Below are positions 44,090 to 64,000 of a stretch of DNA of 64,000 nt, piece by piece. Both the position numbers and the translations under genes were made by a program. The stretch lies in contig OZ244806.1 of the NCBI GenBank assembly GCA_965220075.1, positions 519,009-583,008 on the forward strand. The letters run 5' to 3'. The DNA comes from Chloroflexota bacterium. GTDB lineage: Bacteria; Chloroflexota; UBA11872. The notes below the pieces were generated by a model. It ran no database searches. It was not told where the DNA came from and saw only the letters and a program-made list of their open reading frames with translations. Each line of letters begins with the position of its first letter. Within the stretch, counting starts at the first letter, position 1.

Positions 44090-45440
<1,351 letters not shown>

Positions 45441-46335: not shown

Positions 46336-46345
46336 ACTCTACGCG
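46329..46345. promoter_or_regulatory. Perfect palindrome cgcgtaga-c-tctacgcg 40 bp upstream of the ATPase gene
   Basis: 8-bp arms with a 1-nt spacer, seen directly. It may be an operator or a terminator. Confidence 0.3.
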
Positions 46346-46382
46346 CGGGCAGCGGCGTGGTGCCGACACGGAGGGGTGACGG

Positions 46383-47561
46383 ATGCAAATCGAGAGCATC
46401 CAAATCAAGAACTACCGGCTCTTTCGCAGCGTCACCCTGAGTGATCTGCCGCGCATGGCTGTGGTCGTGGGCGCCAACGGGTCAGGCAAATCGACGCTGT
46501 TCGACGTCTTCACCTTCCTCAAGGACGCGCTGACTCAGAACGCCGCCGCGGCGGTGGCCAGGCGCGGCGGATTCCGCGAGTTGGTCAGCCGCGGTGAGCA
46601 GGGTCCAGTCGGAATCACCATCAAGTTTCGCGAGAGCGGCGGGCGGCTGGCGACCTATCTGCTCGATGTTGCCGTAGCGAGCGGGCGCGTGGTCGTGGAC
46701 CGCGAAGTGCTGCGCTACCGCCGAGGCCAGGGAGGCGGTCGGCCCTGGCGCTTCGTGGACTTCTCGCGAGGTGCCGGAACCGCAATCACCAACGAGTCTG
46801 CCTATGGCCAGGAAGGCGTGGACGAGGAGCGCGAGAACTACGAGCTCGACGATCCTAGCGTCCTCGCCATCAAGGGCCTGGGTCAATTCCGCGAGTTCCG
46901 GGTAGTCGCGGAGTTCCGCAACCTGATCGAGAACTGGCACGTCTCAAACTTCCATGTCGCCGACGCCCGGCCTAGCGCCGAGGTCGGCTACGCCGAGCAC
47001 CTTTCCACCCGCGGCGACAACGTCGCGCAGGTTGCTCAGTACCTCTACGAGAACGAGCGCGAGCGCTTCAACCAGGTCCTCGCGGCCATGAGCCGGCGCG
47101 TCCCTGGCGTGAGCGGCGTCGAGGCCAAACCCACCGAGGACGGGCGTCTTGTGCTGCGCTTCCAGGACGGCAGCTTCCGGGACCCGTTCATTGCCCGCTA
47201 CGTCTCGGACGGCACGATCAAGATGTTCGCCTACCTTGTGCTGCTCTACGACCCCAAGCCGCACCCCCTGCTGGCAATCGAGGAGCCGGAGAACCAGCTC
47301 TACCCCGAGTTGCTGCCGGAGTTGGCTGAAGAGTTCCGCGACTACGCGCGGCGCGGCGGCCAGGCGTTCGTTTCGACCCACTCGCCCGACTTCCTGAACG
47401 GAGTGGAGCTCGACGAAATCCTCTACCTGGTCAAGCAGGACGGCTTCACCACCGTGCACCGCGCTCGTGAGAGTGAGTTACTGCGCAATCTGGTGGCAGA
47501 GGGGGACTTGCCAGGCGCGCTGTGGAAGCAGGGGCTGTTCGAAGGCGCGGGGATTCAGTGA
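46383..47561 (+). CDS. AAA_21/ABC-type ATPase, OLD-family N-terminal-domain-like (AbiLi-like)
   Basis: IQIKNYRLFRSVTL...VVVGANGSGKSTLFD (Walker A)...LLAIEEPENQLYPELL (Walker B/D-loop)...STHSPDF (H-loop). No fused nuclease domain. Confidence 0.75.
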   Translation: MQIESIQIKNYRLFRSVTLSDLPRMAVVVGANGSGKSTLFDVFTFLKDALTQNAAAAVARRGGFRELVSRGEQGPVGITIKFRESGGRLATYLLDVAVASGRVVVDREVLRYRRGQGGGRPWRFVDFSRGAGTAITNESAYGQEGVDEERENYELDDPSVLAIKGLGQFREFRVVAEFRNLIENWHVSNFHVADARPSAEVGYAEHLSTRGDNVAQVAQYLYENERERFNQVLAAMSRRVPGVSGVEAKPTEDGRLVLRFQDGSFRDPFIARYVSDGTIKMFAYLVLLYDPKPHPLLAIEEPENQLYPELLPELAEEFRDYARRGGQAFVSTHSPDFLNGVELDEILYLVKQDGFTTVHRARESELLRNLVAEGDLPGALWKQGLFEGAGIQ

Positions 47562-48118
47562 GCCGGCTGGTGCTTCTGCTCGAAGAGGCCTCCATGAAAA
47601 CACTTCTCGATAGGCTTCTGCCACGGCTCTTCCCAGACCTGACGTTCCTCTGTGTTAGGCATGAGGGCAGGCAGGACCTCGAAAAGAGCATCCCGCGCAA
47701 GCTGCGCGCATGGCGGGAGCCGGGAGTCCGCTTCCTAGTGCTGCGGGACAACGACGGCGGCGACTGTCACGCCCTGAAAGATAGGCTCCTCGGACTCTGC
47801 CGGCAGGGCGGCCGGGGCGATTCGCTGGTGCGGATCGCGTGTCAGGAACTCGAAGCCTGGTACCTGGGCGAGCCGGAGGCGCTGGCGGACGCGTTTTGCA
47901 ACGAAGAGCTGCGTGGGATCCGCCGACTGGCGCGCTATCGAAATCCAGACGCGGTCGCGACGCCATCTAAAGCTATCAAGCGGCTCATACCTGAGTTCCA
48001 GAAAATATCGGGCGCCCGCCGGATGGCGCAGTTCCTTTCAAAGGAACGCAACCGATCCACCAGCTTCCAGACGCTGCTGCGCGGAATTGAGCGACTCTGT
48101 CCGGACGCCTCCCAATAG
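47558..48118 (+). CDS. DUF4276-family protein (TOPRIM-like E...DxD), AbiLii-like partner of the ATPase
   Basis: The GTG overlaps the ATPase stop (GTGA). LVLLLEEASMKTLLDRLLPRLFP...FLVLRDNDGGD carries a conserved Glu and a DxD, consistent with a split OLD-family TOPRIM. Confidence 0.6.
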   Translation: MSRLVLLLEEASMKTLLDRLLPRLFPDLTFLCVRHEGRQDLEKSIPRKLRAWREPGVRFLVLRDNDGGDCHALKDRLLGLCRQGGRGDSLVRIACQELEAWYLGEPEALADAFCNEELRGIRRLARYRNPDAVATPSKAIKRLIPEFQKISGARRMAQFLSKERNRSTSFQTLLRGIERLCPDASQ

Positions 48119-48353
48119 GGACCAACCGCCCATGGGTGAGTGCCCGCAAGCCGATCGAGGTCGATCTGTCACTGGATGACATCAATGCGGCGTCGGTGCA
48201 TGGCATGGGAAGGCTGTCCCGCGACGTGGCCAGAGGGCATCGTTTTGGGATATGGACCCGCGGGTTTCGTCAGAAGTTTGGACTCTGGCCGTCCTGACCG
48301 CGCTACGCTGCCGTCGTACTGCATTTTGAAGGCCGCGGCCGGCTAGAAGCTCC

Positions 48354-49082
48354 ATGCGCGTCGCGCTTTTTGCAGACGTTCACGCCAACCTGACGGCGCT
48401 GCGGGCCGTCTTGGCGGACATCCGGGCGCGCGGCCCGTTCAATCTCATCGTCTCCGACGGCGACCAGATAATGGGTGGGCCGCGTCCGCTCGAGGTTTGG
48501 AGCGAGCTGCGGGAAGGCGGTGTGACGCTGCTGCGCGGCAACGTAGAACGCGATCTCGGCAGCGGCCGTTTCCCGCCTGAGCCTGCCGGCGGAAAGAACC
48601 GCGCCGCCATCGAGTCGGTTTTCTACTGGACCCTGGAGCAAGTTCCCGACCAGGTGCGCGCGGCGGCCGCGGGGCTTCCCGCGGAACTGAAGGTCGAGAT
48701 GGACGGCGCGCCGCCTCTCGTGGTCGTGCACGCCAACCGAGACAATCTGGACGACTTCATATGGGAAGACACCCCGCCCGCTGAGTTGCGGCGTTTGATC
48801 GGCCACCCGCCGCCGGGTCTGCTCGTGCTCGGTCACGTGCACGCGCCGCTCGACATGCAGTTCGAGTCGACCCGTATCGTGCGCCCTGGCAGTGTGGCCC
48901 TGAAGTACGAGGCCGACGTGTACAACCTGGCGCACTGGGCCGAGGCCGCCTGGGACACCAGCGTCGGCGCCTGGACCTGCCGCAGTCACGTCGTGGCCTG
49001 GGACCACCGCGCGGAGATCGAGGCGGCTTACGCCGTCGGGTATCCCGGCGTCGAGATATTGCCGGGATTCGACCGCGCCTGA
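48354..49082 (+). CDS. Calcineurin-like metallophosphoesterase (YfcE-like)
   Basis: MRVALFADVHAN...VSDGDQI...GNVE...LLVLGHVHAP. Confidence 0.75.
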   Translation: MRVALFADVHANLTALRAVLADIRARGPFNLIVSDGDQIMGGPRPLEVWSELREGGVTLLRGNVERDLGSGRFPPEPAGGKNRAAIESVFYWTLEQVPDQVRAAAAGLPAELKVEMDGAPPLVVVHANRDNLDDFIWEDTPPAELRRLIGHPPPGLLVLGHVHAPLDMQFESTRIVRPGSVALKYEADVYNLAHWAEAAWDTSVGAWTCRSHVVAWDHRAEIEAAYAVGYPGVEILPGFDRA

Positions 49083-49185
49083 CGCCCAGAGCTGCTGTCA
49101 GCGCGCGGCCGTCCCTTGTAGGCGAGTAGCCTGACTGCGATGCTTGAGCAGAATGTTGAGTGGGGGGGCTGCGGTTGTGAGCACG

Positions 49186-49524
49186 ATGGTCACCGAGGAC
49201 GAGGTTCGCGAGAAGCTGGGCACCGTGATAGATCCCGAGATCGGGATCGGCATCGTGGATCTCGGGCTCATCTATGAAATCGCCATAGCGCCCTATCACC
49301 CCGAGGAGGGCGAGCCGGAGGCTGAGCCGGAGGACCTGGCGGTCAAGGTCACCATGACGCTTACCACGCCCGGCTGCCCGGCCGGTCCATACATCCTGCA
49401 GCAGGTGAAGGAGCAGGCGGAGTCGATAGACGGCGTAAGGAAATCCAAAATCGACCTGACCTTCAGCCCGATGTGGAACGAAGACATGATGAGCGAGGAC
49501 GTGCGCTGGATCCTTGGCCGCTAG
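49186..49524 (+). CDS. DUF59/MIP18-family Fe-S cluster assembly protein (SufT-like)
   Basis: TEDEVREKLGTVIDPEIGIGIVDLGLIYEI...TMTLTTPGCPAGPYI. Confidence 0.65.
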   Translation: MVTEDEVREKLGTVIDPEIGIGIVDLGLIYEIAIAPYHPEEGEPEAEPEDLAVKVTMTLTTPGCPAGPYILQQVKEQAESIDGVRKSKIDLTFSPMWNEDMMSEDVRWILGR

Positions 49525-49617
49525 GCGGTTTCGATCGGCCGGGTTGCAAACCGACTCCATAGTCCTAGCCTTCTACCTCGATCAGGCTGGCCGCGAGCGC
49601 GCTAATCCGCCGGGTAC

Positions 49618-50355
49618 TTGATCGTGCGGATCAGCTTCACCAAGCTCGATCTCTTCGAGTTCTGCCCTTGGGCCTACCGCTACCGCTACGTCGAGCGAAT
49701 CCCCACGCCGTTTTCACCGCGGCTTGCCACCGGCGCCGCGGTTCACGCCGTGCTGCGGCGGTTCTTCGAGCGCCTGCAGTCGGGCGCGCAGGCCGGACTG
49801 TCCGAGCTTCTCGCTATGTACGAGGACTATTGGGCTGGTGCGCCTTGGCTCGATCCGGCGCGGCAGCCAGACCTGTGGGACCGGGGTCTGGCGCTTCTCA
49901 AAGGCTTTTGGGCCGCCAACGCGGCTAACCTGGGCCGTCCTGTTCTGCTTGAGGCGCGCTTTCGTGTATCGCTGGAGCCAGGTGATCGGCACACCGTGGA
50001 GGGCCTGATCGACCGCGTGGACGAAACGGCTGGCGGCGTGGAGATCATCGATTACAAGAGCGGCGCCCGGCCCGACGGCTTGCCCGAGTACACGCGTACC
50101 CAGCTGCACACTTACGCGCTTGCCGTCGAACGCCAGTTCGGTTTGACCCCTGTGCGTCTTACGGCCTACTTCCTTAGCGACAACCGCGCCTTGTCGTCCG
50201 CGCCGGATCGCGGCTATGCCAGCCGACTGCGAAAGCGCTTCGCGGCTGCCGCCGCTGACATCGCCGCGGGGAGTTTCGGGGCGACTCCCGGACCGCAGTG
50301 CGCGCGCTGCGATTACGCCGACCGCTGTCCCCATAAGTGGACCGAAGGCGCGTAG
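49618..50355 (+). CDS. PD-(D/E)XK-superfamily nuclease with a Cas4/AddB-like four-Cys cluster
   Basis: The FCPWAYRY N-terminal Cys plus the C-terminal CARCDYADRC give the 1+3 Cys spacing of Cas4/RecB-family Fe-S nucleases. The central IDRVDE...IIDYKSG matches the D...E-x-K core. Confidence 0.6.
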   Translation: MIVRISFTKLDLFEFCPWAYRYRYVERIPTPFSPRLATGAAVHAVLRRFFERLQSGAQAGLSELLAMYEDYWAGAPWLDPARQPDLWDRGLALLKGFWAANAANLGRPVLLEARFRVSLEPGDRHTVEGLIDRVDETAGGVEIIDYKSGARPDGLPEYTRTQLHTYALAVERQFGLTPVRLTAYFLSDNRALSSAPDRGYASRLRKRFAAAAADIAAGSFGATPGPQCARCDYADRCPHKWTEGA

Positions 50356-53273: not shown

Positions 53274-54133
53274 TGGATACCTCCCATGTCGCGCCCACTC
53301 TCACCGACACGCAGGTCTTGGACTTCTGCAAGAACGGCTACCTGGTGCTGGAGGGCGTCGTCTCCGCGGAGGTCAACCGCCGCACGGTTGAGTTTCTCAA
53401 CGAGGATGCGCGGAACGTGATCGAGAACCCGGGCGAGCCGAGCGAAATCCTGCACGAGGATTGGTTCGTCGACAGCGTGATCATGAATCCCGCCGCGGCC
53501 GGCGCCGTGCGCTGTCTCCTCGGTGCGAACTTCGCGACGCCGGTGCTGATAAGCAACCACCGTATGCGCATGCCTCAGCCGCCGCAGACCTGGCATCGCG
53601 ACAGCGGCTCGCGCCACGGTCCCGCACTTCATTACCTGCAGGTGTTCTACTACCCCGAGGACTGCCCCGTGGAGATGGGCCCCACCGAGGTGCTGCCCGG
53701 CTCGCACCTGCTCTTCCAATACGCGAGCCACATGGGGCACTACGGCGGCGTGCGGGAGGCTGTCAAGACCGCCGCGCCGGCGGGCTCGATCTTTCTGACC
53801 GTGTACTCGATCTGGCACCGGCGCTCGCGGTCGACCGCCAGTGGGATTCGCAACCTGCTCAAGTACAACTACTGGCGCACGGCGCCGCCGCAGCGCGACT
53901 GGATTGTCGATCCCGAGTTTGACTTCGGCACGGCCAACTACGCGCTGCCCAGGCCGGCCATGCGCCACCGGCTGTACGAGGACGGCGCCCGCATGTTCTT
54001 CTGGCTGTGCGGAAAGTCCGACGAGTTCCACACCATGGGCGGCCAGGGCTGGCCCATGAGCGCCGCGCTCGGACACCACTACATCGACCGTTCCATGGGC
54101 TATCCCGGCGAGCCGACCGGCACCATCTACTAG
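53274..54133 (+). CDS. Phytanoyl-CoA dioxygenase (PhyH) family protein
   Basis: LDFCKNGYLVLEGVV...WHRDSG...LPGSHL... The upstream part of the 399-aa listed ORF is in a different reading context and was rejected. Confidence 0.7.
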
Positions 54134-54335
54134 CTGCGTCCCAATGCGTCCTATTTCGGACCAGGAAGCACGAATGAGGCTTTGCTCACAGCCGGCGAGG
54201 GCGATTTCTATCGCGTGACTGCTAAGAGTGTATTCCGTCACGTGCGCCGCCTGGATCCTCTTTGATATTTTGTATTCCAGCGAGTTGCGAGATATATGCA
54301 TGCCCTGTATAAGTATGCACAAAGACTGCCGAGTC

Positions 54336-54372
54336 TTGACTCACACACGCCTTTTTTATGACATCTGATATG
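54336..54372 (+). promoter_or_regulatory. AT-rich region with a TTGACT (-35-like) and a TATGAC/TTATGA (-10-like) upstream of the glycan-cluster methyltransferase
   Basis: ttgactcacacacgccttttttatgacat lies within a 285-bp stretch whose GC is far below the window average. Confidence 0.25.
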
Positions 54373-54418
54373 CGTGACTGGGCTTCAGCGTGGAGTACGA
54401 ACTTGCTAAGTTTAGAAG

Positions 54419-55405
54419 GTGAGATTGATGTCTGGTAGTTCGTCCAGCGACCTCGGCGGTGTTACAAATCACAGCCATAGCTGCGCATTGTGCTCCTCCC
54501 GCGTCCATATCCCTACTGGGATAAAGCCGCCGCCCTACACCCTGCCGGAATACCGGTTCGAGATTCTTCGTTGCGCCTCATGCGGCCTGATGTCTACGCA
54601 GCCGCAGCTGACGCCCACTGAACTCAAGTCGGTATATGACTTGATTGACTACTATTCGCTTTCGGAGGCTACCGACCAAAGCGCGGCCAGTGGATCGGAG
54701 CGGCTGCGCTGGAGCGTGCGTAGTCGGGTCACGCGGTACTACTACGCGCGAGACCGCAAGGGCGCGGGCTTGCTGACTCGACTGATCGCCATGGCCGCCC
54801 ACCGGCGCTTTGGCTGGGCTCCCTCTAACCTCCAGGGCAGCCATTTACTCGATGTCGGATGCGGCGACGGCGCTTTCCTTCTTGACGCGCGCGACGCGGG
54901 CTGGACGGTCCAGGGCCTGGAGTTCTCGGAAACGGCCGGCGCCAACGCTGCGCGCCTGGGCCTCAACGTCACAATCGGTCGGCTTGAAGATCGCCCGTTC
55001 GAGCCGGAATCCTTCGACGTGGTGCGGCTTTGGAGCGTCTTAGAGCACCTATCCGATCCGTGTGGAGCAATGCGTGAAGTCGCCCGCATTCTGCGGCCGG
55101 GAGGCTGGGCGATTGTCCAGACGCCCAACGCCCGATCGCCGGCGGCGCGCCTGATCGGCGACGGCTGGATCGGCTGGCAGATACCTGTCCACCTCAATCA
55201 CTTTACGCCTGCCACTCTGGAGCGCACAATCCGCACCACCCGGCTGCTACCGGTCGAGGTGCACCACGCCTCCATAGGAACCTTGACCTGCGGCCTTCAC
55301 CCCAACCTCAGAAGCGCGCGTTACCTCATCGTTCTCGTGGACTACTTATTGGATCTGCTCAAGCTCGGCGATTGCGTCGTGGTGTTCGCTCGAAAACCCG
55401 CCTGA
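54419..55405 (+). CDS. Class I SAM-dependent methyltransferase with an N-terminal Cys4 zinc-ribbon
   Basis: CALCSS...CASCGL (2x CxxC) followed by LLDVGCGDGAFL (motif I)...FDVVRLWSVLEHLSDP...LRPGGWAIVQTPN. Confidence 0.7.
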   Translation: MRLMSGSSSSDLGGVTNHSHSCALCSSRVHIPTGIKPPPYTLPEYRFEILRCASCGLMSTQPQLTPTELKSVYDLIDYYSLSEATDQSAASGSERLRWSVRSRVTRYYYARDRKGAGLLTRLIAMAAHRRFGWAPSNLQGSHLLDVGCGDGAFLLDARDAGWTVQGLEFSETAGANAARLGLNVTIGRLEDRPFEPESFDVVRLWSVLEHLSDPCGAMREVARILRPGGWAIVQTPNARSPAARLIGDGWIGWQIPVHLNHFTPATLERTIRTTRLLPVEVHHASIGTLTCGLHPNLRSARYLIVLVDYLLDLLKLGDCVVVFARKPA

Positions 55406-56419
55406 TCACCGCGTACCCCAGCCATCGCGACTCATGATCCCGTAGCCAAGCCAATTTGCGACAACGCCTTCCGCATAAGTGAGGAGCGTGACCCAGCACA
55501 CTGGGATGTGGAATAACCAAACCCAGCTTGGCGCACGCCGGAACCCACGTATCGCTTGTAGAACCAGCGGTAAGATCGTAATGGTTGAAATGCAGAAATA
55601 GATAATCCTGAGCGATGTTCCCTGTAGCACGTCACCGCGCACACCGACGGATCGGTAGTGCAGGTAATCACGGACTCTCCGCTTCTGCTTACGGCGGAAG
55701 ACCGAGAAGCTATCCGCATAGAAGTGAGCGATTTCAGGATATGACTTCGCAACTGACACGAATCTACCAGGCGCACCCAGCCTTAGGATGTCGACATCGA
55801 CGAGGAGTCCGTCGCTAACCGCTCTGCGAACGAATTCAGTGCGGGCCATGAAGCCGTTGGAGCCAATTGTCGGAGGCCTGTTCTTGTCAAATGTGACTTT
55901 GCTATAACCTTCTCTATTCACGACTCGTAACATTGGAAGATCGGTCCAGCGGCCTGTAACCATGCTGAATCGATCATAGTCGCCAATGAACAGCCGCAGA
56001 GGGTCATTCATTCCGAGCAGGGCAAAATAGCGGTTCAAAGGCTTCATGCCGGGTACGACGCCAAACGCGATGGCTTCGGAAGCGACAATTTCTTCGTCCT
56101 CGAATGGTTTCATCATGCGCGCCAGCCAGTCATCTCCGATGAGTATGTTGTCGGCGTCTACGGATAGCATGAACGGATACTTCGCCGCGCCGAGACCGCG
56201 GGCTTTGCCCGCCTCTGTCGTGACGTCTTCGTTGGCAACCACCCGGCAGCCTGCGCGCCGTGCGACCGCGACGGTGGAGTCAACCGAACCCCCGTCCGCG
56301 ACGATCACCTCGACATCGCCCAGTGTGTATTGCTGTCGACCTATTGAGCGCAGCAGATGACCCAAATCATCCGCGCAGTTCAACGTCGGCACTATGATGC
56401 TGATCGATCTATCGTTCAT
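55406..56419 (-). CDS. Family 2 glycosyltransferase with two C-terminal TM helices (ArnC-like polyprenyl-phosphate aminosugar transferase)
   Basis: ISIIVPTLNCADDL...VIVADGGSVDST...SVDADNIL, followed by C-terminal TM segments. Confidence 0.7.
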   Translation of the reverse strand: MNDRSISIIVPTLNCADDLGHLLRSIGRQQYTLGDVEVIVADGGSVDSTVAVARRAGCRVVANEDVTTEAGKARGLGAAKYPFMLSVDADNILIGDDWLARMMKPFEDEEIVASEAIAFGVVPGMKPLNRYFALLGMNDPLRLFIGDYDRFSMVTGRWTDLPMLRVVNREGYSKVTFDKNRPPTIGSNGFMARTEFVRRAVSDGLLVDVDILRLGAPGRFVSVAKSYPEIAHFYADSFSVFRRKQKRRVRDYLHYRSVGVRGDVLQGTSLRIIYFCISTITILPLVLQAIRGFRRAPSWVWLFHIPVCWVTLLTYAEGVVANWLGYGIMSRDGWGTR

Positions 56420-56515
56420 CGCCGTGCGCAAACCTTAGCCGACGCTCTGAGCCATGCATATCCGTATACCGGCTGCGCGACAACTACTCGCCATCACTAG
56501 ACGGCCAAGCGCCGG

Positions 56516-57661
56516 CTACCCGCGGCGCAGCTCGGCGAGGGTGTCCTCGACGGCTGTGATCACCGCGGACTGCTCGTCGGCCGTGATAGTGGGGTAGAGC
56601 GGAAGCGTCACCGTCGACGCGCCCACGCGTTCGGCCTCGGGGAAGTCGCCGGGGCCGTGCCCCAGGCGTGTGCGATATGCCTCGAACAGGTGGATCGGGC
56701 GGAAGTTCACGGCCACTCCGATATGTCGTTCCTGGAGGGAATGCAGGAGCGCGTCGCGCAGGCTCGGATCGACTTGAATGGTGAAGAGGTGCACGGCGTG
56801 GCGGCCACCGGGCGGCCGGCGGGGCATGCGCAGGCCCTGGACGTGTTCGAACGCGGCCGCGTACCGGTTGAAGGCGGCCGTGCGCGCCGCCAATAGCTCG
56901 TCGATGCGGGCCAGTTGGCCGGTCAGGAGCGCCGCCTGGATGTCGCTCATGTTGTACTTCCAGCCATGCTCGGGCACGTCATAGTGCCGGTAGCGTCCGG
57001 TGTAGCGGTCGGCCGCGCCGGCGCTCATTCCATGCAGCCGCAGGCGTCGCAGCTTTTCGGCGAGCGCGTCGTCGCGAGTGACGATCGCACCGCCTTCGCC
57101 GGACGTGATGTTCTTGGTGGCGTAGAAGCTCAGGCAGGCGGCCGCCGAACGAGCCCCGACCGCCTCACCATCTCGCCGCGCCTCCAGGGCGTGCGCCGCG
57201 TCCTCGAGCACTGCGAGGTCGTGCTCCTGGGCGAGCGCTTGGAGAGCTTGCATGTCACACATCTGGCCGTACAGGTGCACGGGGAGCAGCACTCGGGTGC
57301 GCGGCGTGATCGCGGCTGCGACGCCATCGGGGTCGAGATTGCCGGTGTCGGGAAGCACGTCGACGAACACGGGAGTGGCGCCGGTGTGGATGATGGCGTT
57401 TGCCGTGGCTACAAAGCTCAGCGGAGTCGTGATGACTTCGTCGCCCGGAGCGATTCCGAGAGCGACGAGGCTGAGGTGGATGGCGGCCGTTCCACTGGTC
57501 ACGCCTACCGCCGCGGCCGTGCGCGTATAGGCGGCGAGCGACTTTTCTAGATCGGCGGTGACCGTGCCAGTGGTCAGGAAGCTCGTGCGCAGTACCTTGG
57601 CGACCCGCTCGATGTCTGACTCATCGACGCTCGTGCGGAAGAATGGCACTTCCCGAATCAC
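56516..57661 (-). CDS. DegT/DnrJ/EryC1/StrS-family PLP-dependent sugar aminotransferase (ArnB-like)
   Basis: VTSGTAAIHLSL...SFYATKNITSGEGGAIVT (PLP Lys)... Confidence 0.85.
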   Translation of the reverse strand: MIREVPFFRTSVDESDIERVAKVLRTSFLTTGTVTADLEKSLAAYTRTAAAVGVTSGTAAIHLSLVALGIAPGDEVITTPLSFVATANAIIHTGATPVFVDVLPDTGNLDPDGVAAAITPRTRVLLPVHLYGQMCDMQALQALAQEHDLAVLEDAAHALEARRDGEAVGARSAAACLSFYATKNITSGEGGAIVTRDDALAEKLRRLRLHGMSAGAADRYTGRYRHYDVPEHGWKYNMSDIQAALLTGQLARIDELLAARTAAFNRYAAAFEHVQGLRMPRRPPGGRHAVHLFTIQVDPSLRDALLHSLQERHIGVAVNFRPIHLFEAYRTRLGHGPGDFPEAERVGASTVTLPLYPTITADEQSAVITAVEDTLAELRRG

Positions 57662-57688
57662 CGGTGCTGCTCCGACCTCACCGTCGCA

Positions 57689-59308
57689 GTGCCGATTCTC
57701 GCATCGGCCGTCGGATGCGGGGTAGCGGGGATCTCGGTTTTATTTGGGCGGTGGGTTTGGGAAGATCGCGGCGCAATGGACATCTTCTGGGCTCTGCCGG
57801 TCGCGGCGGCTTCGTTCTTGCTGCAGATCTGGCCGCGTGTCGGCAATCGGCATTTCGGCGTCGACACTTGGCGCCACCTTGCAATCGCCGAATATTACCG
57901 TCGCCGCCGTCGGGGAGAAACGCAAGAGTTCGACCAGTACATCATCGAGGAGCGGTCGGATTATCCGCCGATGCTCCGAGTCCTGCTGTCGCTGCTGCCG
58001 AGAGCCGTCGTCGACCGCACGCAGTGGTTGGTCAGCCCGATCTTCGATGCCGCCCACAGTCTCCTGCTGTTCGGCGCCGCCTATTGGTTGACCGGCGAGA
58101 TAGCCGCGGCCATGGCCGCGCAGGCGGCCTACGCCCTGGCCCCTCTGATCGTGATGGAGAACTCCAACCTCTCGACGAGGCCGCTCGCGTCGCTCATGTT
58201 CTCGAGCCTGATGCTTCCGCATCTGGCCTTTCATACCTCGGGCGACTGGGTCTGGTATCCCGTGTCACTCGCGGTCGGGACGGCGCTCTTCTTGACGCAC
58301 CGAATGGCGGTGCAGGCGCTGACGGCGGTGACCGTAGTGCTGTCGCTCTGGTTCCTTACGCCGTACTACGCGGCGGCCTTCGCAGGTTCGTGGCTTGCGG
58401 CCCTGGTCGTGTCGCGTGGCTTCTATCTGCGGGTCTTCGCCGGGCACGTGGCGATGCTCCGGTGGTGGCGCCGAAACATCCACAACCGCTACGCGCATCA
58501 GGTCCGTGGACTCCCTCGCGAGGCGAGTCAAAGCGGCGATCCCGTCTTTCGGATATACAGCTTGGTGCGGCGCGCGCCGTTCATCGCCGTGGTTGCTGCG
58601 AACGCCTTTGTGGTGTTTCCCATCCTGGTCGCGATCGATCGCGGGTTTGAGCTCGGTCTGTTCCGGCCCCTGGACTGGGATCGCCAGCTCGAGTTCGTGC
58701 TCGTCTGGGCGCTGACACTGCTCACCACCGGTGTTGTGATTCGCCAGGTGCGGCAGGTCGAGTGGCTTGGCGAAGGCGAGCGCTACGGTGAATACGCCGC
58801 CTTTCCCGCCGCCCTCGCAGTGGCGGCCGCAATCACGAGCATCCGGCTCGACCTCACCTGGCTCCCCTGGCTCGTCCTCGCGCTCATTGGCGCCGGCGGC
58901 GGACTCATCCCGTCGTTGTTCCTGCAGCGGCGCGTCATCGCGAACGACACGAGTCGATCGCTCACCCCCGAGCTCCGCAAGGTTCTCGAGGAGATTGATA
59001 GGATCGAGCCACGCCCCAACCTAATGACGTTCCCGCTGTTTCTGGCGGACTTCGCCCTGTACTTCACCCACGCCCGCGTCTGGAGCACCGACAGCTCGTT
59101 CGGCCATCTGCGTCACTACGATGCGGTTTGGCCGGTGCTTCAGCAGCCGGTCCCCGAGATTCTGCGTCGCTACGATGTGGATCATGCGCTGGTTAATGAG
59201 GACTACGTGCGCCTCGCGGAGCTCGGTTTGGACAGCGCCCCCGTTCGGGCGCGCGCGGGTAACTTCGTGCTCGTCAACGTGAGCGATTTGCCGGGACATC
59301 CCGCGTGA
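57689..59308 (+). CDS. Polytopic membrane protein, candidate GT-C glycosyltransferase (ArnT-like by context)
   Basis: More than 10 hydrophobic helices. It is only 27 bp from the divergent DegT start, so the true start may be the internal MDIFWAL at 57776. Confidence 0.5.
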   Translation: MPILASAVGCGVAGISVLFGRWVWEDRGAMDIFWALPVAAASFLLQIWPRVGNRHFGVDTWRHLAIAEYYRRRRRGETQEFDQYIIEERSDYPPMLRVLLSLLPRAVVDRTQWLVSPIFDAAHSLLLFGAAYWLTGEIAAAMAAQAAYALAPLIVMENSNLSTRPLASLMFSSLMLPHLAFHTSGDWVWYPVSLAVGTALFLTHRMAVQALTAVTVVLSLWFLTPYYAAAFAGSWLAALVVSRGFYLRVFAGHVAMLRWWRRNIHNRYAHQVRGLPREASQSGDPVFRIYSLVRRAPFIAVVAANAFVVFPILVAIDRGFELGLFRPLDWDRQLEFVLVWALTLLTTGVVIRQVRQVEWLGEGERYGEYAAFPAALAVAAAITSIRLDLTWLPWLVLALIGAGGGLIPSLFLQRRVIANDTSRSLTPELRKVLEEIDRIEPRPNLMTFPLFLADFALYFTHARVWSTDSSFGHLRHYDAVWPVLQQPVPEILRRYDVDHALVNEDYVRLAELGLDSAPVRARAGNFVLVNVSDLPGHPA

Positions 59309-60279
59309 GGGTTCTCGTCACCGGCGGCGCGGGCTTCCTGGGATCGCACGTTGTCGACGTTCACATTGCGCGCGGCGACGATGTCGTCGCCGTCGACCTG
59401 ACCGATGGATCAAAGGTCGCGCATCTGTCCGACAACCCGCGCTTCCAGTTCGTCCGCGGCTCCGTCATGGACGCGGAGTTGATGGAGGTCCAGATCGCGG
59501 AGTCGGAAATCGTCTACCACCTCGCGGCTGTTGCCGACCCGAAGGTGTACGTGGCAGACCCGCTGCACACCATGAATCTGGATCTGATCGGGGGGCTGCG
59601 CGTCGCCGAGATTGCCGCCCGGCGCGGTCGGCTGCTCGTGTTCACCTCCACATCCGAGGTCTACGGCCGCAATACAGCCGTCCCTTGGTCGGAGGACGAC
59701 GACCGCGTGCTGGGCGCGACCACGATCAACAGGTGGAGCTATGCGACGGCTAAAGCTGCCGTCGAGCACTACATCCTTGCCCTGCACCAGTCGCAGGGGC
59801 TGGAGTTCGTCATCTTCCGCCCGTTCAATATCTATGGGCCGCGCCTGGATTCGCTCGGGGCCGGCCGCGTCGTCACCGTCTTCCTTCACCGACTTCTGTC
59901 CGGCAAGCCTGTCCAGGTGCACGGCGACGGCCGCCAAACACGGACCTTTTGCTACGTCGCGGACGCGGCGCAGGGTGTCGTCGACGGCGCGCTGGCGTCC
60001 GCCGCAAGAAACCGCGTCTTCAACATAGGCACCGATGAGGAGTACGCGATCGTCGATCTAGCCAAGATCATGCGGCGCGTCGGTGGGTTCGATGTCCCGA
60101 TCGAGGCCGTCGAATACGAATCCGTCTTCGGGCCAAGCTACGAGGACATTCGTCGACGCGTGCCTGACCTTACGCGCATTCGCCAGGCCATCGGCTGGGA
60201 GGCGACGACGCCTCTGGACGAGGGTCTCGTCCGCACGATCGAGTACTTCCGCGGCGAAACGGACGTCTCCCGGCCGTGA
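59305..60279 (+). CDS. NAD-dependent UDP-sugar decarboxylase/epimerase resembling the ArnA C-terminal (UDP-glucuronate decarboxylase) domain
   Basis: VRVLVTGGAGFLGSH...TSTSEVYG...RWSYATAK...RPFNIYGPRLD...HGDGRQTRTFCYV closely parallels ArnA-CT/UXS motifs. GTG overlaps the upstream stop. Confidence 0.7.
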   Translation: MRVLVTGGAGFLGSHVVDVHIARGDDVVAVDLTDGSKVAHLSDNPRFQFVRGSVMDAELMEVQIAESEIVYHLAAVADPKVYVADPLHTMNLDLIGGLRVAEIAARRGRLLVFTSTSEVYGRNTAVPWSEDDDRVLGATTINRWSYATAKAAVEHYILALHQSQGLEFVIFRPFNIYGPRLDSLGAGRVVTVFLHRLLSGKPVQVHGDGRQTRTFCYVADAAQGVVDGALASAARNRVFNIGTDEEYAIVDLAKIMRRVGGFDVPIEAVEYESVFGPSYEDIRRRVPDLTRIRQAIGWEATTPLDEGLVRTIEYFRGETDVSRP

Positions 60280-60434
60280 AGATCCTCTTTCATGGGCGGC
60301 CAGCAGCGGGGAATCTCAACGCTCGATGGGCTTACGGCGTCAGGCCAAACCAACTCCAGGTCTCGCGTCTACTCCGGACGACGGCGCATTAGTCGCCTGC
60401 AAGGCGTCGACACGACTCGCCGCTTGAGCCGCGC

Positions 60435-61703
60435 ATGACAACGCCGTCGAGCTCCTCGAAGCGGGACACGCCGGGCAGCAGTTGGGCGCGCACGAATTCA
60501 CCGCTCACCGCTGAAAGAGGCGCCCTCGGCCTCGGCGCACCTAACGGCTTTACGTACCGCCCGTGGCGCGAAGGCGACGACCCCGCCTGCGTCGACATGC
60601 TCGCGCCAATGGGTTGGACGACGGCCGAGCGTTACGCGCGGAAGTTTGAAGACGAGGGTCTGGTACCGGGATCCGTCTTGATCGCCGAATCCGCTGGCGA
60701 GATCCGCGGCCATTCGATCACCGCGTTGCGCCGTCTCATCTTTGGCGACGCACGGCTTCCCGCCGCGACGATCGGGCAAGTGGTGGTTCGAGGCGATAGC
60801 CGCGGGCGCGGAGTTGGCCGCAACCTTCTGGAGCAGGCGCTTAGGTTCGCCCTGAGGCACGGCGCGGTGTTGGTCTGGCTGACGGCGCACCCTGGTCGTG
60901 GAGTCGCGTATGACATGTATCGCCGCCGCGGATTCGAGCGCGTGCAGCATCGTCTGACCGCCAGATTCTCCGCCAAGGAGTCCACCGATGGCCTGTCCGC
61001 CCGGCGGGCGTCGCCGTCCGACGCTGCCGAGCTACGGCGGCTTCGAAGAACGTTCGCCCGCCTGACCGGGGCGGTCCAGGACCGCGACTATGAGCAGGCC
61101 TTCGGATGGGAGTGGTGGCTCGTTTCCCGTGGCGGCCGCGCACACGCCGCAGTCCGGATCCGGATGGATCTGAAGCCCCCCACTATCAGCGCCGCTCTGT
61201 TTGATGCTGATGAAGACCCGGCGCCCTACATGAATTCGGCGATCCGCGCCGCGGGGCTGTCGGAAGTTGATGTCCGTGCGTCCCCCGCCGCGCCGCTGGT
61301 CGCCCGCATGCCAGGTCTCGACTGGCAAATGGTCAGTGGCGAGTACCTCGCCTTCGTTCCGTCCCTCTCACGGCTTCTCACGAGCCTTCTGCCGTGCTAC
61401 CGGCGTCGTGCCGTCGAGCTTGGCATTCGAACGGGACGGGTGGCCGTCGAGCGCAATGATGCCCGGATCGCCGTGGCCTTTGATCGTGGCGAGGCGCGGA
61501 TTTCACCACCGCGTCCTGACGACACGCGCGTCGTGTTCCCAGGTGAAGGTATCGCCTCGGCGGTGCTCGGCGCTTTCGATCCGAGTACGGCAGTGCGCGA
61601 CGGCGCCATCAGTATCCAGGATGGCTCCGTGCCAGCTGCCAAAGCGCTTGAATGGCTTTTTCCATATCGACACTGCGACTTCACCCAGCATTCGGTCTGG
61701 TAG
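60435..61703 (+). CDS. GNAT-family N-acetyltransferase with a C-terminal extension (Eis-like architecture)
   Basis: VVVRGDSRGRGVGRNLLEQALRFA is the acetyl-CoA-binding motif A (Q/RxxGxG/A). 422 aa. Confidence 0.55.
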   Translation: MTTPSSSSKRDTPGSSWARTNSPLTAERGALGLGAPNGFTYRPWREGDDPACVDMLAPMGWTTAERYARKFEDEGLVPGSVLIAESAGEIRGHSITALRRLIFGDARLPAATIGQVVVRGDSRGRGVGRNLLEQALRFALRHGAVLVWLTAHPGRGVAYDMYRRRGFERVQHRLTARFSAKESTDGLSARRASPSDAAELRRLRRTFARLTGAVQDRDYEQAFGWEWWLVSRGGRAHAAVRIRMDLKPPTISAALFDADEDPAPYMNSAIRAAGLSEVDVRASPAAPLVARMPGLDWQMVSGEYLAFVPSLSRLLTSLLPCYRRRAVELGIRTGRVAVERNDARIAVAFDRGEARISPPRPDDTRVVFPGEGIASAVLGAFDPSTAVRDGAISIQDGSVPAAKALEWLFPYRHCDFTQHSVW

Positions 61704-61805
61704 CTATCTGCGGATTACGTAGTCTTTGTGCAAAAGCTTTGGCAGGGCTAAAATACTCAGTTTACAGAGGCAGACAAGCGCTTACTAAAACTCTTTAGCA
61801 CCGCA

Positions 61806-62876
61806 TCAAACCCTGTCGTACTCTCGATACAGATTCAAATCGTACCGCCACGGTACCGCCGCCCACGCAAATTTCATCAAGCTTCGATCGTCGCGGCAGC
61901 GCACAACTCCCTGAACATGCTGTCGCTTCATCATCGTCTTGTTTAAGTTAAAGATATTCCATGCGAGTGCGTCCGCAATCGCACGCGCTTTCCTCCTTCG
62001 ACCTCGCAAGCAATACACGGCGAATAGTCCGACACAGACCAACACATGTATGGGCAATATCTTCAATAGATAAAATAAACCTAGATTCTTCAACAACGAC
62101 TGAATACGATTCTTGAATGCATGATAGTTGACCAAATAAGAGTCCAAGCTCCGCGATGTCGCCGCGACACGATGGAGGATTCGCGCGGACGGAACGAAGT
62201 ATACCTTATAACCAGCCAGCCAGATGCGCCAACATAAGTCGGTCTCTTCAAAGTAAGCGAAGTAAGAATCATCAAACATACCAACCTCATCCAAGACTGA
62301 TGCTCGAACGAGAAGGCAGACGCCCTTGGCTGCAAAGATAGGGTGGGGCGTGTCGAAGCCTCGATCTTTCTGCCGGTACCCGTAGTGATACATCATGCCG
62401 GTAGCTGTCAAGAAATCCCCAATGCAATCTATTCTTGATGGGTCTTCCATCCACAGTATCTTTGGCGTGCACGCGCCTGCGTCCGGATTCGCTTCCATGA
62501 ACTTGATGAGCTCATTCAGCGAATCAGCCTCGATCTGCGTGTCCGAGTTCAGAAAGCAGACATAGTCGCCCGTCGCGCGCGCATAGCCCAGCAGATGGCC
62601 GCCGACAAATCCTAGATTCACCGGTGACGTCACCAGTTGGACGGACGGAAAATCGCTCCGCACCATGTGAGCCGAGCCGTCGTGCGACCCGTTGTCAACG
62701 ACAATCACCTCGCAAGGCTGGTAGTCGACCTTGCAAACCGAGTCCAGGCAATCTCGCAGCAGGTCCCGCGTGTTGTGGTTCACAATGAGTACCGACACGG
62801 TGGGGATGCTGTGGGTCGCCGCGTCGGATGCCACGTGCTTATCCGAGTGGCGGGGTGGCTGGCCGCTCTCGGCCAT
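61806..62876 (-). CDS. Family 2 glycosyltransferase
   Basis: VSVLIVNHNTRDLLRDCLDSV...VIVVDNGSHDGS...LNSDT, with a C-terminal amphipathic/TM segment. Its codon usage is noticeably AT-richer than the window average. Confidence 0.75.
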   Translation of the reverse strand: MAESGQPPRHSDKHVASDAATHSIPTVSVLIVNHNTRDLLRDCLDSVCKVDYQPCEVIVVDNGSHDGSAHMVRSDFPSVQLVTSPVNLGFVGGHLLGYARATGDYVCFLNSDTQIEADSLNELIKFMEANPDAGACTPKILWMEDPSRIDCIGDFLTATGMMYHYGYRQKDRGFDTPHPIFAAKGVCLLVRASVLDEVGMFDDSYFAYFEETDLCWRIWLAGYKVYFVPSARILHRVAATSRSLDSYLVNYHAFKNRIQSLLKNLGLFYLLKILPIHVLVCVGLFAVYCLRGRRRKARAIADALAWNIFNLNKTMMKRQHVQGVVRCRDDRSLMKFAWAAVPWRYDLNLYREYDRV

Positions 62877-62964
62877 TCGCGGGTTGGACTAGTAACTTTC
62901 CGGAGGGACGCGGGGATTTGCGCCAGCGAGACCTTGTGTGGGGTGACCGAAAGCGGGAATGTGA

Positions 62965-63696
62965 GTGAGCTACAAGCGCCTGTCGATCATCGTGGCCGCT
63001 GCGGCCGCGGCCGTGGTACTCACCCTCGGCGCCGTCCTTCACACGCGTGTTCTCCCGCTGACTTCGCATGCCCCCGCCGAGGTCTTCGCGTTTGGGCCGG
63101 TGGTTGGCAAAGTCATACAGAGATTCGAGGCGCCGGCGGATTTCATGACGCGGATCGACCTGTACCTCGTTGCGGATACGCGCGGCGCTGAATTGGTGCC
63201 GGTCAATCTTCGGCTGCGCCACGCGTCTGGCGAAATAGTAGCCGAATCCCGAATTGACATTGGGGCGGGCGACCGAGCTCAACTCCACCGGTTCAGGTTC
63301 ACTCCCATCGAGAACAGCCGGCAAGCCGACTTTGATCTCGAAATCGAGCGTGCCCCGAGCGCGGCCGGTGAGCTCTTCGTGCCCGTCGCACGTGTTCGCG
63401 ATCGAGCTTCCGGCGTGTTCACCGATCACGATGGGGTCCCGCACTCCGACTGGACCGTTCGCTATCAGCTTTTTCAGCGCATTCGCCCCATCAGCTATTT
63501 CCGATCCCTCCTGGAGTCGGATTTTCTTACCGCGGCGGGCGCGCTGGCGGCGGCGGGTTTGCTCGCTCTCGGGGCTGGCGGCGGCATTCGCCGGCTTGCG
63601 CCCGGATTGGCGCCTGCCGCGGCCCCGTGGCTCTTTGGCGTGATCCTGACCATCGGCGCCGCCTGGCTGGCTTTCGCCTTCTTGCCCGCGGCTTGA
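62965..63696 (+). CDS. Hypothetical protein with an N-terminal signal-anchor and a C-terminal TM segment
   Basis: LSIIVAAAAAAVVLTLGAVL...; C-terminal LFGVILTIGAAWLAFAFL. Confidence 0.4.
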   Translation: MSYKRLSIIVAAAAAAVVLTLGAVLHTRVLPLTSHAPAEVFAFGPVVGKVIQRFEAPADFMTRIDLYLVADTRGAELVPVNLRLRHASGEIVAESRIDIGAGDRAQLHRFRFTPIENSRQADFDLEIERAPSAAGELFVPVARVRDRASGVFTDHDGVPHSDWTVRYQLFQRIRPISYFRSLLESDFLTAAGALAAAGLLALGAGGGIRRLAPGLAPAAAPWLFGVILTIGAAWLAFAFLPAA

Positions 63697-63854
63697 GGCG
63701 TGGTGGTCCGCCGCGCGGCAAGCACGGTTTTCGCGGCTAACCAATAGGCCGCGCCCTCTCGCCGTCCGCCGCGTGATGCGGTGGTTGCCGATCAAAGCGC
63801 CCTTGGGTTTCCGTCCAATTCGTTGGGCCTTAGCGGCCTTTGAGGCCGGCGGGC

Positions 63855-64000
63855 TACGCGCTGGCTTCAGCCGGCTCGCGTGGCTCCATTCGGCGCAGAA
63901 ACAAGACCGTCTCGATTCCCAGGTACACGACGCCCGTGGTCACGGCTGCCAGGAGCACGGTCGCCGTCTCAACCGGTGCTGCATGGAATCCCAGCATGCC
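63855..64000 (-). CDS. 3' end of a gene encoding a hydrophobic (membrane) protein; the 5' part lies beyond the window
   Basis: The open minus-strand frame ...GMLGFHAAPVETATVLLAAVTTGVVYLGIETVLFLRRMEPREPAEASA ends with TAG at 63857..63855. Confidence 0.3.

Follow-up and report, generated by a model that had tools for sequence, protein, structure and literature searches.

Does the lower-GC end of a Chloroflexota contig encode a horizontally acquired counterpart of the Arn pathway (PmrHFIJKLM), which places 4-amino-4-deoxy-L-arabinose (L-Ara4N) on lipid A, or a different route to a related envelope sugar? The question is raised by positions 54134-64000 of a 64,000-nucleotide stretch of the genome of a Chloroflexota bacterium of the lineage UBA11872 (assembly GCA_965220075.1, contig OZ244806.1, positions 519,009 to 583,008), referred to below as the window, where an initial annotation had described an island of ArnA-, ArnB-, ArnC- and ArnT-like genes. 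The answer proposed here, to which a probability of roughly 55% is given, is that the segment would encode an Arn-analogous, polyprenyl-phosphate-dependent route adding an N-acetyl-4-amino-4-deoxy-pentose to an envelope glycan, with enzymes drawn largely from other protein families. As far as sequence comparison and structure modelling allow, this reading is carried by the GT-C fold of a 510-residue membrane protein, by the pairing of its gene across phyla with that of a decarboxylase of the UDP-xylose synthase (UXS)/ArnA C-terminal domain (ArnA-CT) type, and by an acetyltransferase gene in a fixed position after this pair. The open reading frames (ORFs) of the initial annotation were all recovered where it had placed them, and their assigned domains were confirmed by Pfam and NCBIfam; those that enter the argument are the following.

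54419..55405, + strand: S-adenosylmethionine-dependent methyltransferase (MT) with an N-terminal CxxC...CxxC zinc ribbon (Pfam Methyltransf_23/11/25)
55406..56431, - strand: GT2a, a membrane-anchored family-2 glycosyltransferase, candidate polyprenyl-phosphate sugar synthase (Pfam Glycos_transf_2)
56516..57661, - strand: predicted DegT/ArnB-type sugar 4-aminotransferase dependent on pyridoxal phosphate (Pfam DegT_DnrJ_EryC1, E = 3e-119)
57776..59308, + strand: 510-residue GT-C-fold membrane glycosyltransferase of an unannotated family (AlphaFold2 model and Foldseek)
59305..60279, + strand: UXS/ArnA-CT-type short-chain dehydrogenase/reductase (SDR), predicted UDP-glucuronate C4-oxidase/decarboxylase (family ranking and motifs)
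60435..61703, + strand: 422-residue GNAT of the Acetyltransf_9 type, predicted N-acetyltransferase of a 4-amino sugar (Pfam, weak WecD matches)
61806..62876, - strand: GT2b, a family-2 glycosyltransferase with one C-terminal transmembrane helix, the most AT-shifted gene (Pfam Glycos_transf_2/Glyco_tranf_2_3)
63854..64000, - strand: 3' end of the gene of a 447-residue MOP/Wzx-like flippase, cut by the window end (match to a protein of the sibling contig described below)

The GT-C membrane protein and its family

The ORF of the membrane protein spans 57689-59308, and the coding start was set at M30 (57776), as shown by the homologues. The resulting 510-residue protein has no sequence match in Pfam, NCBIfam or the PDB. 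Its AlphaFold2 (AF2) model, computed from an alignment of 37 homologues, reached a pLDDT of 90.6 and a pTM of 0.90, and in the Foldseek search of the PDB the first 41 matches were all GT-C enzymes (24 at E <= 1e-3, TM-scores of about 0.5-0.6), including STT3 of the oligosaccharyltransferase complexes, ArnT, AglB, DPY19, AftD, PglB and Pmt4. Thus, the GT-C features that had been expected of this protein are present. The match to ArnT (E = 1.1e-5, TM-scores 0.55/0.53) is, after normalisation by target length, the closest among the leading ones (0.53), with ALG12 at 0.54 but at a far weaker E-value. The earlier designation of the protein as ArnT-like is therefore kept at the level of the fold and given up at the level of the family, since the hhalign probability against a true ArnT, that of the split arn operon L050 considered below, is 0.2% and there is no PMT_2 match.

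A profile search of 1.84 billion representative sequences returned 1,600 family members at E <= 1e-3, with 367 at E <= 1e-30, which corresponds to at least 1,600 clusters at 50% identity for which neither Pfam nor NCBIfam holds a model. The hosts belong to the Chloroflexota, Omnitrophota, Nitrospinota, Actinomycetota, Planctomycetota, Patescibacteria and Gammaproteobacteria, with one archaeon of the Hadarchaeota. Ten of the weakest-scoring among the 150 listed members (about 200 bits) gave no match in a Pfam scan, and a literature search on GT-C enzymes of this kind, on Arn homologues in monoderms and on pathways to 4-acetamido-4-deoxy-arabinose retrieved no paper on the family. The 510-residue protein apparently belongs to an undescribed GT-C family.

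Residue conservation was assessed in an alignment of 187 full-length members. Asp30, located directly after the first transmembrane helix (residues 2-23) in the motif FG[VI]D[TV]W, is invariant (184/184 aligned), and Arg135, His175, Lys/Arg176, Gln180 and Tyr337 are nearly so; a DYPP motif (62-65) lies in the same loop as Asp30, which the fold match would place on the outer side of the membrane. Solved GT-C enzymes carry their catalytic acid just after the first transmembrane helix, and in the modelled structure Asp30 is the candidate for this role. The last transmembrane helix is followed by only about 115 residues, the sequence contains no WWDYG motif and gives no STT3 match in Pfam. Oligosaccharyltransferases have a large C-terminal domain with the WWDYG motif, and a function as N-oligosaccharyltransferase, for which this domain and motif are missing, was rejected.

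Predicted decarboxylase, aminotransferase and acetyltransferase in a conserved module

Of 39 retrieved loci with relatives of the membrane protein, 34 had a clear full-length match and entered the comparison. At a distance of up to 10 kb from the GT-C gene, an SDR orthologue is found in 17 of the 34 loci, a DegT in 23, a GT2b in 16, an MT of the window type in 12 and a GT2a in one; of the 19 loci in which the GT-C protein exceeds 300 bits (about 40% identity or more), the 17 with the SDR are all but two. In the window the GT-C and SDR genes share 4 nt and are thus translationally coupled, and they are separated by no more than about 130 nt in 14 loci of the Chloroflexota, Omnitrophota, Nitrospinaceae and Planctomycetia. 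Examples of the gene order around the pair are an Actinomycetes locus (L045: GT-C, UbiA, SDR, GNAT, DegT, AsnB, MT), a Nitrospinaceae locus (MT, GT-C, SDR, GNAT, carbamoyltransferase) and the Omnitrophota locus L014, where Wzx, GT2, a B12-radical-SAM enzyme, GT4, MT, GT-C, SDR, GNAT, DegT, GT2a, GT4, RmlD, a radical-SAM enzyme and a further MT are all encoded in one direction. GT-C followed by SDR is a conserved and translationally coupled pair in five phyla, usually with the GNAT next to it and accompanied by DegT and the zinc-ribbon methyltransferase.

The SDR was assigned by family ranking. Its NCBIfam scores descend from PRK11908 (U4kpxs, 191 bits) through ArnA (161), RmlB (133) and LegB (130) to GalE (103), and among solved structures human UXS (172 bits) is followed by a Thermotoga epimerase and then by ArnA (152). 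The Thr-Ser-Glu, Tyr-x3-Lys and Arg catalytic set is present as STSEVYG, YATAK (YxxxK) and RRRVP, aligned to T118/E120, Y147/K151 and R277 of human UXS, and these motifs are invariant in all 17 SDR orthologues, which come from five phyla. The protein is 48.4% identical to the stand-alone decarboxylase of L050, a complete split arn operon which also encodes ArnT (PMT_2 and Arnt_C), ArnB, ArnC, a stand-alone ArnA-type formyltransferase and ArnD; the NCBIfam profile of that decarboxylase (181 and 154 bits for PRK11908 and ArnA) mirrors that of the window SDR. The claim that the SDR belongs with UXS and ArnA-CT, and not with RmlB or GalE, is thus borne out, and with the GT-C fold of the membrane protein both signs that would have spoken against the initial annotation turned out the other way. 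A homologue 57% identical to the SDR has a DegT gene directly after its own, and the genomic context of the SDR homologues favours, so far as gene neighbourhood can tell, the release of the keto sugar over UDP-xylose. An action on a lipid-linked sugar, in the manner of ORF13 or DprE2, is regarded as less probable, since the Thr-Ser-Glu/Arg set of the UXS type shows strict conservation and the closest homologue by context, a decarboxylase of nucleotide sugars, belongs to an arn operon. The L050 operon itself (positions 2965-9983 of the JGI metagenome contig Ga0528474_000011) is composed of enzymes that each score below the NCBIfam equivalog cut-off, so that standard annotation would probably under-call a divergent Arn system of this kind.

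The aminotransferase was likewise described correctly as a DegT/ArnB-type enzyme, its best relative in the PDB being ArnB (244 bits); with the ArnB of the L050 operon it shares 39% identity. For the GNAT, the replacement of a formyltransferase that had been supposed from the window is backed by synteny. The gene that follows the SDR encodes a GNAT in Chloroflexota, Nitrospinaceae, Actinomycetes and Omnitrophota, and the GNATs of the last three groups are mutually homologous tandem proteins of the WecD-like type, that is, related to the dTDP-4-amino-4,6-dideoxygalactose acyltransferase, and are not homologous to the GNAT of the window. The recurrence of non-orthologous GNATs in one fixed slot speaks for N-acylation of a 4-amino sugar as part of what the module does. 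The absence of an ArnA formyltransferase domain was confirmed as well, no Formyl_trans or Polysacc_deac_1 domain having been found by Pfam in the window ORFs or in six related annotated loci; no ArnD is encoded in the segment, and no deacylase was seen in any annotated locus. The cysteines of the MT zinc ribbon are kept in orthologues of four phyla, among them those of the Chloroflexota, Nitrospinaceae and Omnitrophota. The sibling contig record starts this gene (at 6815) after the ribbon, giving 271 residues; the longer form, with the ribbon encoded by window positions 54419-54590, has 328 and is taken as the real one because the CxxC...CxxC pattern is conserved in the orthologues.

A second arrangement of the GT-C family is found in the Patescibacteria and in uncultured Gammaproteobacteria, where two divergent GT-C paralogues lie beside a DegT and an RmlB-like 4,6-dehydratase and there is no UXS-like SDR; owing to this RmlB-like partner, the family is linked to 4-amino-4-deoxy sugars and not to pentoses only. 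Paired GT-C paralogues, arranged divergently or convergently, were recorded in L020, L023, L026-L030, L032, L035 and L036. It is tentatively suggested, at somewhat less than even odds, that the 510-residue protein founds a new, broad GT-C family whose members would specialise in carrying N-acylated 4-amino-4-deoxy sugars from polyprenyl phosphate to envelope glycans, with a pentose as the sugar where the partner is UXS-like and a 6-deoxyhexose where it is RmlB-like.

The membrane steps, the proposed route and its rivals

Among the enzymes expected between the nucleotide sugar and the GT-C protein, the family-2 glycosyltransferases depart from the Arn model. The AF2 model of GT2a (pLDDT 92.9) consists of a GT-A domain, an amphipathic helix and a helical membrane bundle (C-terminal helices 242-327, of which 273-327 form the hydrophobic bundle), and the structures closest to it over the full length are those of the membrane mannosyltransferase PcManGT (6yv7, TM-score 0.53) and of the catalytic core of BcsA; ArnC ranks 36th in Foldseek with a TM-score of 0.40. 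Neither the ArnC model PRK10714 of NCBIfam nor the PDB search gave an ArnC match for GT2a, GT2b reaches 26 bits against ArnC (cut-off 529) and 25.8 bits against the ArnC of the PDB, and an hhalign comparison of the GT2a family with true ArnC covers just 131 N-terminal columns, which are the generic GT-A core. The ArnC-like label of the initial annotation was accordingly dropped, neither GT2 belonging to the ArnC clade, and the two C-terminal helices on which it was based are a topological resemblance, not family membership. The order DegT-then-GT2a recurs in the Omnitrophota operon L014. Homologues of GT2a in other bacteria and in an archaeon adjoin unannotated proteins of 835-974 residues (L047 9811-12588, L048 10559-13483 from Methanocaldococcus indicus, and L049 9076-11583) with an N-terminal transmembrane bundle, a large soluble domain and a C-terminal transmembrane helix, which hints that the GT2a family may be recurrently paired with large membrane transferases.

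The flippase candidate was recognised at the window end, which moves the end of the cluster beyond the 63700 given initially. The translation of the last 147 bases (63854-64000, - strand) matches the C-terminus of a 447-residue protein of the sibling contig with about 12-14 transmembrane helices, and this protein aligns with Polysacc_synt flippases of the Actinomycetes and Omnitrophota loci (E = 3e-12 and 1e-14). A MOP flippase homologue was found in the Chloroflexota loci inspected (L042, L046), in the Omnitrophota locus L014 and in the Actinomycetes locus L045; no ArnE or ArnF is encoded in the segment. Of the parts of a three-component system, the GT-C protein and the MOP-like flippase are encoded in the locus, with GT2a and GT2b as candidate synthases.

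In the proposed route, UDP-glucuronate would be oxidised and decarboxylated by the SDR to a UDP-4-keto-pentose, as its homology and conserved catalytic residues indicate, and the keto sugar would be transaminated at C4 by the DegT enzyme, on the grounds of homology and synteny, to give a UDP-4-amino-4-deoxy-pentose. The conserved gene order suggests that the GNAT then N-acetylates the amine, which would make the unfavourable transamination irreversible, as N-formylation does in Arn; a methyl group may be added by the zinc-ribbon MT. A membrane-anchored GT2 would load the sugar onto polyprenyl phosphate, with GT2a favoured because of its conserved pairing with DegT and GT2b as the alternative, the MOP-type flippase would move the lipid-linked sugar outward, and the 510-residue GT-C enzyme, in keeping with its modelled fold, would transfer it from this presumed donor to an extracytoplasmic acceptor, probably a wall polysaccharide or surface glycoprotein and not lipid A. 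Since the seven annotated loci showed no phosphoglycosyltransferase of the Bac_transf or MraY/WecA type, a polyprenyl-monophosphate donor fits better than an oligosaccharide linked to undecaprenyl diphosphate (Und-PP). As no deacylase is present, the sugar is probably left uncharged, and this speaks against a role in resistance to cationic antimicrobial peptides (CAMP); the polymyxin or CAMP function implied by the initial annotation is therefore unlikely if the amine stays acetylated.

Several observations weigh against this route. The SDR scores below the equivalog cut-offs (161 against 777 for ArnA, 191 against 294 for PRK11908) and slightly higher against true UDP-xylose synthases than against ArnA, and the release of a 4-keto product is not readable from its sequence. 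The DegT protein reaches 349 bits for PseC and 317 for ArnB in NCBIfam, both under the cut-off (631 for ArnB), and is most similar to the DegTs paired with an RmlB-like 4,6-dehydratase in the Patescibacteria and Gammaproteobacteria, so that its substrate could be a 4-keto-6-deoxyhexose; seven of the eight related Chloroflexota loci have no DegT gene in the 10 kb on either side of GT-C. None of the annotated loci showed a gene for UDP-glucose 6-dehydrogenase. As neither GT2 resembles the ArnC/GtrB/DPMS clade beyond the GT-A core, the lipid-loading step is without direct support. Finally, additional Leloir glycosyltransferases and other putative GT-C proteins are encoded in the loci, and the 510-residue enzyme might consequently transfer a different sugar.

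Part of this evidence would be accommodated if the SDR were an ordinary UDP-xylose synthase, or another uronate-processing SDR, and the DegT and GNAT acted on some other nucleotide sugar, such as a 4-keto-6-deoxyhexose from a dehydratase encoded elsewhere, no 4-amino-pentose being made and the genes lying together because the glycan contains several sugars. Human UXS is indeed the best solved relative of the SDR, for its C-terminal third as well, seven of the eight Chloroflexota relatives keep SDR and GNAT without a nearby DegT, and both the closest DegT relatives and the top NCBIfam model, that of the 4-amino-4,6-dideoxyhexose transaminase PseC, point to hexoses. However, the 48% identity to the arn-operon decarboxylase lies well above the UXS match of about 172 bits, SDR, GNAT and DegT are direct neighbours in the Omnitrophota and Actinomycetes loci, as SDR and DegT are in the genome with the 57%-identical homologue, and a GNAT directly after the SDR would have no obvious substrate if the product were UDP-xylose; this explanation is accordingly regarded as improbable. 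A block assembly of the Pgl/Wzx type, mirroring PglF/E/D and PglB of Campylobacter, is considered unlikely, if with a little more in its favour. Here the SDR, DegT and GNAT would make an N-acetyl-amino sugar, Leloir GT2 and GT4 enzymes would build an oligosaccharide on Und-PP, the MOP protein would flip it, and the GT-C protein would act as oligosaccharyltransferase, ligase or polymerase towards protein or wall. The sequence of dehydratase, aminotransferase and acetyltransferase is that of di-N-acetylbacillosamine (diNAcBac) synthesis, MOP/Wzx flippases classically handle Und-PP-oligosaccharides and one is encoded in the locus, several extra GT2 and GT4 genes occur in related loci, and the oligosaccharyltransferases STT3, AglB and PglB are among the top structural matches of the GT-C protein. 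Against it stand the want of an initiating phosphoglycosyltransferase in the seven annotated loci, the short C-terminal part of the GT-C protein and its failure to match STT3 in Pfam, the position of ArnT as the closest leading match by target-length TM-score, nominally exceeded by ALG12, and the assignment of a flippase of the MOP/MATE family to a polyprenyl-monophosphate sugar (PMC11127046).

The literal form of the initial annotation, according to which an island equivalent to Arn was acquired horizontally and protects against CAMP by attaching a cationic aminopentose to an envelope lipid, agrees with the homology of SDR and DegT to ArnA-CT and ArnB, with the lower GC of GT2a, GT2b and the spacer upstream of the MT gene, and with an IS110 transposase 9 kb upstream. 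It is nevertheless held to be very improbable: no member of the ArnC, ArnD, ArnE/F or ArnT families is encoded, none of the annotated loci has a deacylase to unmask the amine, there is no tRNA or integrase at the borders, and the core is syntenic in eight related Chloroflexota and in other phyla and is therefore not a recent import. The Chloroflexota are also generally regarded as lacking lipid A.

Locus history, neighbouring genes and relation to known systems

The lower GC on which the idea of an island was based is real, with 0.623 in 54134-64000 against 0.694 in the background (1-46000 of the window), and uneven. The spacer (0.498), GT2a (0.558; 0.64 at third codon positions, GC3), GT2b (0.536; GC3 0.65) and MT (0.624) account for the dip; the DegT, GT-C, SDR and GNAT genes are near background (GC 0.65-0.68, GC3 0.73-0.82). 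The two remaining features of the segment are these.

54134..54418, no strand: AT-rich intergenic spacer, of which 54148-54380 is a strain-specific indel junction
62965..63696, + strand: ORF243, a 243-residue membrane protein (topology; without Pfam match)

The edges were compared with the sibling contig (L046), which comes from a relative with a 99%-identical membrane protein. Window positions 53417-54147 and 54381-64000 align to it at 97.4% nucleotide identity and are split there by a 5.9-kb insert (732-6605) encoding a NodU/CmcH-type carbamoyltransferase and a 1128-residue membrane protein, in place of which the window holds an unrelated AT-rich stretch of 233 bp (54148-54380). The left edge is thus a strain-specific indel junction, because this part of the spacer replaces the 5.9 kb of the sibling. 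The 285-bp promoter region described initially is accordingly retained as an AT-rich spacer and not as a promoter, no match to the sigma-70 consensus having been found in a scan of 53.9-64 kb, spacer included. Beyond the window end, the sibling contig continues with a radical-SAM enzyme, a GT2, an unannotated membrane protein and a GT-C protein of the PMT_2 type. Rather than forming an island of its own, the segment is one mosaic piece of a locus for surface glycan that extends over at least 21 kb. A scan of 40-64 kb found no tRNA, hence there is no classic island attachment site, and neither a tRNA nor an integrase flanks the region.

In the nearest species (GT-C 89% identical) only window positions 57774-60966, the GT-C/SDR core, align at about 90% nucleotide identity. 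A common gene order, GT2b, flippase-like gene, ORF243 (-), GT-C, SDR, GNAT, MT (-), is seen in the eight related Chloroflexota loci, and GT2b orthologues are present in all eight; GT2a is missing from all of them and a nearby DegT from seven. Apart from the 90%-identical homologue in a close relative (P0064), the closest relative of GT2a is 47% identical. GT2b is about equally distant from all its relatives and lies 15 GC points under the window background, its orthologues deviating from their own loci by just 1-4 points. From this conservation pattern, with the divergence and GC of GT2a and GT2b, it follows that the GT-C/SDR core was inherited vertically and that the flanks were exchanged. 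The proposal of horizontal acquisition thus fails for the set of GT-C, SDR, GNAT, MT and GT2b, which is ancestral in the related Chloroflexota, and survives in part for DegT with GT2a and for the low-GC GT2b allele, which look like lineage-specific replacements. The window strain has lost two genes relative to its sibling, a pattern usual for a surface-glycan locus.

Further upstream, an IS110-family transposase (44177-45226, -), 9 kb from the cluster, is followed by a stretch of slightly lower GC with an AAA_21/AAA_15 ATPase resembling AbiEii/OLD (46383-47561), a metallophosphoesterase (48354-49082) and a PD-(D/E)XK nuclease (49618-50355); positions 44177-50355 possibly constitute a small defence or mobile region that has nothing to do with the glycan genes. 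ORF243 has an N-terminal transmembrane helix, a soluble domain of about 160 residues and a C-terminal pair of transmembrane helices, a topology on which a function as flippase was rejected. Its orthologue lies divergently beside the GT-C gene in all eight Chloroflexota loci, and ORF243-like proteins form a paralogue family restricted to the Chloroflexota, with two to four copies per locus (L003-L010); a weakly similar paralogue adjoins the PMT_2-type GT-C gene of L046 (20499-21377, -). They may be accessory subunits.

Pfam scans of the unannotated neighbours of 1128, 1162, 447, 380, 450 and 292 residues gave nothing significant. The 1128-residue protein encoded in the indel, and so deleted in the window strain, belongs to a family of 980-1175 residues that is found in GT-C loci of the Chloroflexota, Nitrospinaceae and Omnitrophota (pairwise E = 1e-67 to 1e-148), with members in L046 (2896-6282, -), L042 (14837-18325), L002 (6023-9181 and 15334-18276) and L001 (4621-8148). 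About 8-10 N-terminal transmembrane helices are followed in these proteins by a large soluble domain and a C-terminal transmembrane anchor, and none has a significant Pfam match, one giving a weak match to GT-C_AftD; the family may represent a second novel GT-C-like enzyme. Radical-SAM enzymes, mostly with a B12-binding domain, were recorded in L001 (8392-9849), L002 (973-2487), L014 (4899-6356 and 16232-17614), L045 (8467-9987) and L046 (17689-19407), and AsnB-type amidotransferases and carbamoyltransferases accompany them in the glycan loci, which suggests heavily tailored sugars. In L042 (3827-6704) and L052 (4043-7627), a SIS isomerase, a GHMP kinase, a nucleotidyltransferase and an epimerase are encoded as in the synthesis of nucleotide-activated heptose, and because these genes lie near the module in related Chloroflexota, the glycan may also contain heptose.

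With Arn the proposed route has in common the UXS/ArnA-CT-type decarboxylase and the ArnB-type aminotransferase (48% and 39% identical to the enzymes of the split operon), an N-acylation after transamination, a membrane-bound GT2, a flippase and a GT-C-fold transferase to complete the logic, and the DegT-then-GT2 gene order, as in arnB-arnC. It differs in that acetyl would be supplied by a GNAT and not formyl by a formyltransferase, with no ArnD deformylase, in GT2 proteins outside the ArnC clade, in a GT-C protein without detectable sequence similarity to ArnT/GT83, in a MOP/Wzx-like flippase candidate instead of the SMR-type ArnE/F, and in the placement of the genes within a large polysaccharide locus; lipid A is moreover an unlikely acceptor because the host is a Chloroflexota bacterium. 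Judged by sequence, family membership is shared with Arn for the decarboxylase and the aminotransferase only.

A parallel in architecture may be drawn with the three-component extracytoplasmic systems of the GtrA/B/C type and those for pentofuranose (GT136), which likewise consist of a lipid-phosphate sugar synthase, a flippase and a GT-C_A-fold transferase possibly founding its own family; MATE/MOP-type flippases, new GT-C families and auxiliary SDRs that set the identity of the sugar were described for them in glycan loci by Kelly et al. 2024 (PMC11127046). In contrast to their pentofuranose, derived from phosphoribosyl pyrophosphate, the predicted N-acetyl-aminopentose would be built as a nucleotide sugar; the window lacks a UbiA-type synthase, such as adjoins the GT-C gene in the Actinomycetes locus, and the GT-C protein of the window has just 510 residues, with a small C-terminal domain and no carbohydrate-binding module. 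A natural 4-acetamido-arabinose derivative, 2,3,4-triacetamido-2,3,4-trideoxy-L-arabinose, is a constituent of the O-antigen of Psychrobacter cryohalolentis (PMC8040287). With that sugar and with the WecE/WecD route to Fuc4NAc the module shares a 4-aminotransferase followed by an N-acetyltransferase, WecD-like GNATs occupying the equivalent slot in other phyla; those sugars, however, are incorporated by cytoplasmic Leloir transferases, and the translational coupling of the decarboxylase gene to the GT-C gene points here to lipid-phosphate-mediated extracytoplasmic transfer. The mycobacterial modification with GalN by PpgS/Rv3779 and the Aft/Emb arabinan machinery are similar in that an envelope of monoderm type is decorated outside the membrane by GT-C enzymes using polyprenyl-phosphate sugars, and in that several GT-C-like proteins are encoded in one locus, including, in the present case, members of about 1,100 residues with the weak AftD match. 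Their sugar chemistry is different, and sequence comparison shows no kinship with PpgS (20 bits for GT2b), nor did one come to light with the Pfam families of Aft/Emb.

With an indel between strains and an exchanged allele flanking a constant GT-C/SDR core, the locus illustrates clearly how surface glycans diversify in an uncultured lineage. The recombination of an Arn front end with non-homologous membrane machinery bears on the evolution of the polymyxin-resistance pathway, and a candidate new GT-C family with an invariant set of Asp, Arg and His residues is of interest because each earlier new family brought new chemistry. The envelopes of the Chloroflexota, Omnitrophota, Nitrospinota and Patescibacteria are chemically almost unstudied, and the module, by predicting an N-acetyl-aminopentose together with its transferase, offers a concrete glycan target in them. 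If the tentative view of the whole GT-C family is true, it would be an ancient analogue of Arn with an origin separate from the modification of lipid A, and an envelope component so far overlooked in these poorly studied phyla could be defined by it.

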